Shown: positions 6,001 to 9,000 of the stretch, one piece after another
How the letters are laid out: every line of letters begins with the position of its first letter
How positions within the stretch are numbered: position 1 is the stretch's first letter
Assembly: GCA_963844535.1 (NCBI GenBank)
Contig: CAWJOP010000002.1
Span: 128,668-192,667, forward strand
Direction: 5' to 3'
Length of the DNA: 64,000 bases
From: an uncultured Gammaproteobacteria bacterium
Lineage (GTDB): Bacteria > Pseudomonadota > Gammaproteobacteria > CAWJOP01
Made by a program: the position numbers

Positions 6001-9000
6001 TAATTGGGGTGATTTCATTACAGAGCTTAAGTGGTCCGATTGATTTGTTATCAGGATTGTTTAATGCAATAAAACAGGGGCTACTAACCTATTGTTTCTT
6101 TTTAGGGTGGTTGAGCATTAATTTAGCTGTGATTAATCTTTTACCAATTCCGGTTCTAGATGGTGCGCAGCTGTGCTATATCCTTGTCGAAAGTATCACG
6201 AAAAAAGCGGTGTCAATTAGAGTTCAAATCCTTGCATTTCGTCTTGGTGTTATTTTTATTGCTATTTTGATGGTACAGGCATTAATGAATGATATAAGGC
6301 GGTTTTTAACTTGAAAAAATGATATACTGACGGGGTATTTAAGTTGTTTTATATATGCTGCGCAAATTATACCTCTCGGAAACAGGATTGCGGAATTTTT
6401 TCGCTCAGGTTACCAGAAATTTTAATGTTCTGATTGAGAAAAACCGCAGGAATACTGTCTATGTATTTCGAGGTTTTTCGACTGAAGAACATTAAAATTT
6501 CGAAGTAAAATGAGATGAAAAAAACTGCAACCCTGTTTCCGAGAGGTATATACAATAAGAAGTTGAATCTTTGCATTTTCAGGGAGAAAAACGATGGTTA
6601 AAAAATACCAACATATTTTGTTAGCAATTGATCTGCATCCAAACTGTGATAAAACGACAGCGGCAAAAGCAGTCGCTATTGCAGAGGGTTTTGATGCTAA
6701 ACTGAGCGTGGTTCATGCAATTGAGCATATTAGTGCTTATGGTATTGCTCAGGCTTATCCCACTGTTCTTGATCTTGAGGAACAAATTGTAAACGATGCG
6801 AGAGAAGAGCTAGCTAAGTTAGCGCAGTCTTGGAAGATTAAACCAGCGAATCAATATATTGAGGTAGGGCCGCCAAAATTTATTATTCTCGCAAAAGCGG
6901 AAGAAGTTAAAGCAGATTTAATCGTAGTTGGCAGTCATGGCCGCCATGGACTAGGGCTTTTATTAGGCTCAACAGCAAATGCAGTACTACATGGTGCACT
7001 TTGTGATGTGCTTGCTGTGCGAGTGAAAGGGTAGCGTAAAGTAAAATTTTCATTAGCCCGAAAATTTTAAATGTAATGAGTGTAAATATATATGAGCGAG
7101 CTTACCAAACAAGTCGTTCCTGTTAATATTGAACAGGAATTAAAGCAGTCTTACCTTGATTATGCGATGAGCGTCATTGTGGGGCGTGCATTACCTGATG
7201 TACGCGATGGCTTAAAACCAGTACATCGACGTGTTTTATTTGCGATGAATGAGATTAGGTAACGATTGGAATAAGCCATATAAAAAATCGGCTCGTGTTG
7301 TCGGTGATGTGATTGGTAAATATCATCCTCATGGTGATACTGCGGTTTATGACACGATAGTGCGTATGGCGCAACCTTTCGCATTGCGATATCTGTTGGT
7401 TGATGGCCAGGGTAACTTTGGTTCGGTTGATGGCGATGCACCTGCTGCCATGCGGTATACCGAAATTCGCATGTCTCGATTTGCGCATGCTTTATTAGCT
7501 GATTTAGAAAAAGAAACTGTTGATTTTGTCCCAAATTATGATGGAAATGAGTTTGCACCAGTGGTTTTGCCCGCACGGGTTCCGAATTTATTAGTCAATG
7601 GTTCTACGGGTATTGCTGTGGGTATGGCAACCAATATTCCGCCGCATAATTTAAATGAAGTCATTGATGCATGTGTTGCGATGATGGATGATCCAGAAGT
7701 TTCTTTAGAAACTTTGATGCAATATATTCCAGGGCCTGATTTTCCAACTGCAGGGATTATTTATGGTCGTGCTGGTATTTTACAAGCTTATCAAACAGGA
7801 CGTGGTCGCATTTACGTTCGTGCAAGAACAGAAATTGAAGAAGATGAAGAGTAAAAAACAAGCAATTATTGTTACTGAATTTCCTTATCAAGTAAATAAA
7901 GCTAGGCTGATTGAACGAATTGCTGAATTAGTCAAAGAAAAGAAAATTGAAGGTATTACTGCGCTGCGTGATGAATCCGATAAAGACGGTATGCGGATTG
8001 TGATTGAACTTAGGCGTGATGAAATGCCGGAAGTTATTTTGAATAACTTATTTGCCCAAACGCAAATGCAAGTGGTATTTGGAATTAATATGGTTGCTTT
8101 GGTTGATGGTCACCCACAAATATTAAATCTTAAGCAGTTGATTGAGGCATTTTTAAGACATCGACGTGAAGTGGTTACGCGCCGCACCTTGTTTGAACTT
8201 AAGAAAGCTCGTGAACGAGCGCATATCTTGGAAGGATTGGGTATTGCGTTAGCCAATATTGATGAAATGATTGCTTTAATTAAAGCAGCATCTGATCCTG
8301 CTACAGCAAAGCAACAATTATTAGCTAAAGCATGGCACGCAGATTTAGTACTTAACATGCTGAATCGAGTAGATGCAGATGTTGCAAAGCCAACCGATCT
8401 TGAGCCTGGATATGGATTATCCGATGCTGGTTATCATTTATCTCCACAACAAGCCCAAGCTATTTTAGATCTGCGTTTACATCGTTTAACCGGTCTTGAG
8501 CAAGATAAAATCTTAAATGAATATCGTGAATTGATTGTAACTATTAGCGGGTTGCTAGAAATTTTAGCCGATCCTGATCGTTTGATGGCAGTAATTCGCG
8601 AAGAATTATTAGCGATTAAAGAACAATTTGGCGATAAAAGACGTACAGAAATTGTGGATGATGGCGCAGATATATCTGTTGAAGATCTAATTACACAAGA
8701 AGATATGGTGGTAACTCTTTCGCATGAGGGATATGTGAAAACTCAACCACTTTCGACTTATCAAGCGCAGCGGCGTGGCGGTAAAGGAAAAGCAGCTACT
8801 ACGGTAAAAGATGAAGATTTTATTGAGCGCTTAGTGATGGCACATAGTCACGATACTATTTTATGCTTTTCAAGTGCTGGAAAAGTATATTGGCTTAAAA
8901 CCTATCAAATTCCTCAGGCTTCACGAGTAGCGCGTGGTAGACCGGTCATTAATTTGTTACCACTGCAAGCCAATGAAAAAATTAATACGATTTTACCAAT

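Follow-up and report, generated by a model that had tools for sequence, protein, structure and literature searches.

Two frameshifts in gyrA of an uncultured Legionellales-like bacterium are almost certainly consensus errors of the metagenome assembly

In a stretch of 64,000 nucleotides from an uncultured Gammaproteobacteria bacterium (contig CAWJOP010000002.1 of assembly GCA_963844535.1; hereafter the window) the gene for DNA gyrase subunit A cannot be read in a single frame. The locus raises the question whether the interruptions belong to the organism, as a decayed or a recoded gene, or to the sequence as it was assembled. A preliminary description of the window had reported two single-base frameshifts that distribute gyrA over three frames. 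The list of open reading frames and direct reading of the sequence agreed with this: gyrA (7092-9652, + strand) is split into the following pieces.

7092-7262, + strand: gyrA piece 1, 56 aa; amino acids 1-54 are correct and are followed by IR and a stop (ORF list, alignment with E. coli GyrA)
7249-7854, + strand: gyrA piece 2, amino acids 55-252; holds the quinolone-resistance region and the catalytic Tyr122 motif AAMRYTE
7851-9652, + strand: gyrA piece 3, the remainder of the N-terminal domain and the C-terminal beta-pinwheel domain

The first frame ends with ..MNEIR and a TAA at 7260-7262, the second with ..EEDEE and a TAA at 7852-7854, the two stops that had been described. Each site has one surplus base, and both shifts go in the same direction. 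Taking out one base per site gave a GyrA product of 852 aa, whose residues 1-416 gave a gap-free alignment with residues 1-416 of the E. coli protein (E = 2.9e-210). The AAMRYTE motif with the catalytic tyrosine was found in the repaired protein, and a resistance region of the Thr83/Asp87 type was kept. The nearest intact homologue, P0001, is 98% identical and of equal length (852 aa), and has Pfam domain PF00521 followed by PF03989; the C-terminal 460 residues encoded in the window are nearly the same as those of P0001. By its gap-free alignment with the E. coli protein and its identity to P0001 the repaired product is like the GyrA of other Gammaproteobacteria, but unlike a normal gyrA the gene in the window needs two frame corrections to encode it. 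There was no second gyrA in the 64-kb window.

Two independently assembled contigs were compared with the window. One of them (L081), found by exact look-up of the Usp protein, is a 1,781-base short-read Logan contig from run ERR10755945. The other (L083), found by protein search, is an 11.2-kb JGI metagenome contig (Ga0116226) from a different sample; it encodes P0001, thus an intact 852-aa GyrA, and is syntenic with the window over 3789-14907 at 98.7% identity. L081 showed 0 differences from the window over the 671 bases (6501-7171) that precede the following segment of gyrA.

7172-8252, + strand: window-private patch in gyrA, 1.08 kb; 48 substitutions and 2 one-base insertions

Within this segment L081 differed from the window at 48 positions and by two one-base gaps, and its gyrA was open across both frameshift sites. 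In the three-way alignment L081 was the same as L083 at all 48 private substitution sites and at both insertion sites; the insertions are therefore absent from the same strain and from the other sample alike. Outside the patch, at positions 6662 and 6695, L081 agreed with the window and L083 differed. Since two more contigs of ERR10755945 matched the window at 100% over 1,203 and 1,050 bases elsewhere, the strain of the window is also present in an independent short-read assembly, where its gyrA is intact. From 8253 onward the window was nearly identical to the intact JGI allele. A literature search on the run accession ERR10755945 found no paper. Proteins exactly matching the Usp (6594-7034), PyrF (9868-10572) and L20 (36316-36678) of the window are on record in a public collection.

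Apart from the frameshifts, gyrA had been thought to be perfectly conserved, a view that the 48 private substitutions in 7172-8252 contradict. The first 1.2 kb of the gene, which code for the N-terminal part and are better conserved than the rest, are covered by the patch, whose end falls where conservation reaches its minimum. The quinolone-resistance region (amino acids 67-106) does lie between the two shifts, as had been stated, and it contains private changes at amino acids 88 and 103. Exact look-up of the 201-aa middle GyrA fragment returned no record, and an intact protein with the patch allele of the window was not returned by a protein search which missed P0001 as well.

The two insertion sites were then compared base by base.

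7254-7259, + strand: frameshift site 1; GAGATTAGGTAAC in the window versus GAGCTTA-GTAAC in the intact alleles (alignments with L081 and L083)
7850, + strand: frameshift site 2, an extra A; GAAGAGTAAAAAAC in the window versus GAAG-GTAAAAAAC in the intact alleles

At site 1 the window has a C-to-A substitution at 7254 and an extra G at 7258 or 7259 (in ttaGGtaac). The preliminary description was right that this site has one base too many and is not a homopolymer (the alignments revealed neither a homopolymer nor any repeat), but it put the surplus near 7254, where the A is a substituted base. At site 2, where the intact alleles read GAAGGTAAAAAAC, it had taken a T for the surplus base; alignment with the intact alleles identified A7850 instead. 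This A (gaagAgtaa) lies outside the neighboring A6 run, whose length is the same in the intact alleles.

The composition of site 1 can be compared with that of other bacteria. The relatives L006, L012 and L028 have GAATTAGGnAAT there, close forms of GAATTAGGTAAC. Conversion of the native GAGCTTAGTAAC into GAATTAGGTAAC takes three edits: a G is deleted, a C is changed to A and a G is inserted. In the window (GAGATTAGGTAAC) the last two of the three have been made and the deletion of G is missing, which leaves one base surplus. Site 1 thus fits a half-applied hybrid of two alleles.

The private substitutions point in the same direction as distant relatives do. At 49 gyrA sites where the window and the native allele were compared, L006 had the base of the window at 35 and the native base at 7; for L012 the corresponding numbers were 34 and 5, and the mean over the 80 listed reference genomes was 24 as in the window versus 13 as in the native allele. 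The closest clade mostly had the native allele at the private sites. The same tendency was seen in the proteins. Among the private residues of GyrA, the residue found in the majority of distant relatives was that of the window in 11 of 17 cases and the native one in 2 of 17 (examples of the distant type are G56, I88 and V103); in ThrS, whose gene is described below, the fractions were 30/61 and 14/61, with VKSDLRNEK among the examples. Where the native residue is different from the distant majority, the window nevertheless kept the native one in 168 of 183 columns in GyrA and 128 of 175 in ThrS. These counts indicate that the patches are a site-by-site mosaic in which the organism's own allele is mixed with those of other taxa. 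Roughly one private change in three is found neither in the native allele nor in the majority of distant relatives, so ordinary sequencing noise has a share as well. Random read error was considered as the sole cause and rejected, as the private bases match distant relatives far above chance. Recombination from a foreign donor was rejected as well, the mosaic being fine and site by site, with no contiguous foreign tract.

Pfam scans showed that gyrA is not the only broken gene in the window: three others (gatB, gatA and thrS) are also in pieces, and their lesions lie in two further patches.

33290-35037, + strand: damaged patch in thrS; differs from the intact same-strain contig L085 by 94 substitutions and 16 indel columns
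about 22200-24000, - strand: damaged patch in gatB/gatA; 13 one-base indels, with 5-16% substitutions versus 1-2% in the flanks, relative to a JGI contig from the metagenome of L083, which represents a 98% relative and not the same strain

In the window thrS (33262-35190, + strand) consists of about 12 frame pieces with frame changes both ways. The Logan contig L085 carries an intact thrS of 642 aa and is identical to the window on both sides of the patch (33195-33289 and 35038-35814, infC included). Several of the thrS indels are deletions within short homopolymers, which fits long-read error. The one-base indels of gatB/gatA fall between 22285 and 23891 and leave gatB (21632-23066, - strand) in at least three pieces and gatA (23092-24619, - strand) also in at least three; as in thrS, they run in both directions. 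Elsewhere in the window long reading frames of 1,545, 1,279, 1,870 and 700 aa are open, and mreB, mnmG, infC and rplT are conserved yet undamaged. Exact look-up of the MreB protein of the window gave no record. The neighboring gatC (24620-24985) looks intact. At the 3' end of gatA (23094-23183) there are about 78 extra bases relative to the JGI contig L086, which could represent a variable tail, sequence of foreign origin or one more defect of the assembly.

The lesions are absent from independent assemblies, are clustered in patches and lean toward the consensus of distant relatives. On these grounds the gyrA frameshifts are almost certainly not biological but errors in the consensus of a metagenome assembly. 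Of the options offered in the preliminary description, that of an assembly or base-calling error gains strong support from the intact L081 and L083 and from the similar damage to thrS, gatB and gatA. As to the kind of error, we think it probable that the consensus of conserved genes was called from mixed reads and that the actual gyrA of the organism is intact. Reads of more distant bacteria would pile onto the organism's own reads, mapping only at highly conserved genes. A consensus or polishing step calling every position separately on such a mixed pile would flip some of them to the foreign base, and where the alleles differ by several adjacent bases the change might be applied in part, with one base too many as the result. 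A consensus called from mixed reads in conserved genes is expected to give a site-by-site mosaic such as that of the window. The software step responsible may have been short-read polishing, long-read consensus or gap filling. The undamaged state of some conserved genes (mreB, mnmG, infC, rplT, see above) counts against mixed reads.

It is known that consensus sequences built from long reads keep indels that become frameshift errors at gene calling, and that polishing needs uniformly high depth, which rare members of a community do not have (PMC9262707; bioRxiv 10.1101/2021.08.23.457338). The window resembles such long-read or hybrid metagenome-assembled genomes (MAGs) in that small indels break conserved genes and in the homopolymer deletions of thrS. 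It is unlike them in that the errors are confined to patches of 1-2 kb in conserved genes instead of being evenly spread, in that they are accompanied by 4-5% substitutions leaning to other taxa, and in that the gyrA sites are not homopolymeric. The patchiness and the substitutions toward other taxa therefore suggest a mixed-read consensus and not read noise alone.

A close rival, which would still make the patch an artefact, is that it represents the real gyrA of a co-occurring sister strain stitched in by the assembler. The two insertions would then be long-read indel errors, left uncorrected owing to the low coverage of that strain. The sharp edges of the patch agree with this, as do the 25 substitutions per indel, a ratio well above that of raw read error; moreover, several thrS indels are homopolymer deletions, and every GyrA residue that the window has in the patch is a plausible one for a functional protein. 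However, between two sister strains derived changes should be about equal on both sides, whereas agreement of the window with distant relatives is two to five times more frequent. In ThrS, residues typical of relatives with about 69% identity are scattered among native ones, and the combination of bases at site 1 is explained neither by the native nor by the foreign-type allele alone. Taking these points together, we regard the stitched-in allele as rather unlikely.

The best named full-length GyrA relatives are Legionella species (about 72% amino-acid identity), and for the N-terminal 420 residues the best identity among the reference-genome matches listed was 79% (Legionella, Tatlockia and MAGs). 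The label Coxiella used in the preliminary description is thus not supported. The G+C content of the window is 38.9%. Its gene content includes three candidate effectors:

26344-30981, + strand: candidate effector, an ankyrin-repeat protein of 1,545 aa
47304-52916, - strand: candidate effector, a protein of 1,870 aa with a WipA-like phosphatase domain
55134-56234, - strand: candidate effector, a protein with a weak match to the LepB N-terminus

These features fit a Legionellales-like intracellular bacterium, and the candidate host-targeting effectors suggest an intracellular lifestyle like that of Legionella. Host-associated lineages of the Legionellales type accumulate pseudogenes, and the window, with its large ankyrin-repeat protein and WipA-like phosphatase, resembles the genome of such a bacterium. 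The indels might accordingly be true, with gyrA, thrS, gatA and gatB being pseudogenes, whether of an intracellular bacterium undergoing decay or of a subpopulation that is defective. This would require that four normally indispensable genes be dead within 64 kb in which reading frames of 1,545, 1,279 and 1,870 aa stayed open, and no second gyrA is at hand in the window. It is also at variance with the intact genes of the same strain and their perfectly identical flanks. Furthermore, decaying genes should leave the consensus of their family, but the private residues approach it (11/17 in GyrA, 30/61 in ThrS); neither a drift away from the family consensus nor lesions common to the population were found. 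We consider true pseudogenes very improbable.

The remaining biological explanation is recoding: ribosomes would shift to the +1 frame in a programmed manner at NNG-UAA sites, or transcription would slip on the A6 run. At either site the extra base is followed after 2 nt by an in-frame TAA, and if its T were skipped the frame would be restored with the length unchanged. In having a stop exactly at each shift, and an A run beside site 2, the gene is similar to those expressed by +1 frameshifting of the prfB type or by poly(A) slippage in endosymbionts. It is dissimilar in that the sites are not conserved, a slippery codon and a stimulator are lacking, and the A run is too short and unchanged. 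The closest relatives (P0001-P0005) all have a full-length GyrA in one piece, and at 77 of the 80 listed reference-genome loci the match was a single segment over more than 700 residues. Reading of the sequence upstream of either site revealed no slippery codon like that of prfB and no Shine-Dalgarno-type stimulator like GGAGG; the codons that precede the two stops are AGG and GAG, neither of which re-pairs in the +1 frame. The same strain carries an intact allele, and the shifts in thrS and gatBA go both ways. Efficient slippage takes runs of about nine or more. Rescue by slippage at the A6 tract, the other option of the preliminary description, is contradicted by the position of A7850 outside a run which is equally long (six A's) in the intact alleles, by the lack of any run at site 1 and by the one-piece GyrA of P0001-P0005. 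The position of the insertions 2 nt before TAA was considered as a recoding signal in its own right. In simulation an insertion fell within 2 nt of an off-frame stop with P = 0.13 per site and about 0.016 for both; the patch contains 46 off-frame stops, and with no supporting evidence the signal was judged weak. Recoding would thus be highly improbable. A reading in which some of the population truly carries the insertions, several essential genes being expressed by +1 frameshifting at NNG-UAA or the defective copies being carried in a polyploid cell, seems more improbable still.

The gyrA frameshifts have no biological significance and serve only as a practical warning. Most of the contig is perfect, and yet in a number of its most conserved genes, the ones used in phylogeny, completeness scoring and resistance typing, the consensus is corrupted over patches of 1-2 kb. 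The gyrA patch has two altered residues in the quinolone-resistance region (amino acids 88 and 103) in addition to the split gene, so automatic annotation would call gyrA a pseudogene and report a wrong allele. The caution about resistance genotyping voiced in the preliminary description was apt. For this genome, caution is also advisable with pseudogene counts, marker-gene trees and any reading in terms of genome decay.

Several other features of the window were recorded. Compared with L083, the window is short of 133 bp at position 13738. The missing stretch takes in the beginning of an M16 peptidase gene (about 24 codons) and the greater part of the spacer that separates it from the adjacent sigma-factor gene; its absence reflects either a true difference between strains or a defect of the assembly. 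A fusion of mevalonate diphosphate decarboxylase and a NUDIX domain (510 aa, 2279-3811, - strand) is encoded beside a polyprenyl synthase gene. This is indicative of a mevalonate pathway, as known from Legionella and Coxiella. The only RNA gene detected in the window by Rfam and ARAGORN was a tRNA-Val(GAC) (33148-33222, + strand) directly upstream of thrS.

Short intergenic repeats (87-185 nt, 84-95% identity) also occur in the window and form four families:

3811-3986, 5001-5176 and 58341-58516: first repeat family
21387-21557 and 47094-47264: second repeat family
6367-6551 and 35739-35922: third repeat family, 185 nt; one copy close upstream of usp/gyrA, the other between infC and rpmI
9676-9762 and 42922-43008: fourth repeat family, 87 nt; one copy directly after the gyrA stop

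The ends of the 185-nt repeat are inverted (TTATACCTCTCGGAAACAGG ... CCTGTTTCCGAGAGGTATAT), and the short intergenic repeats look like miniature mobile elements. A large hairpin (10907-11046), with 66-nt arms that are 83% complementary and a loop of 8 nt, is located between a lapA-like gene and the first M16 peptidase gene.
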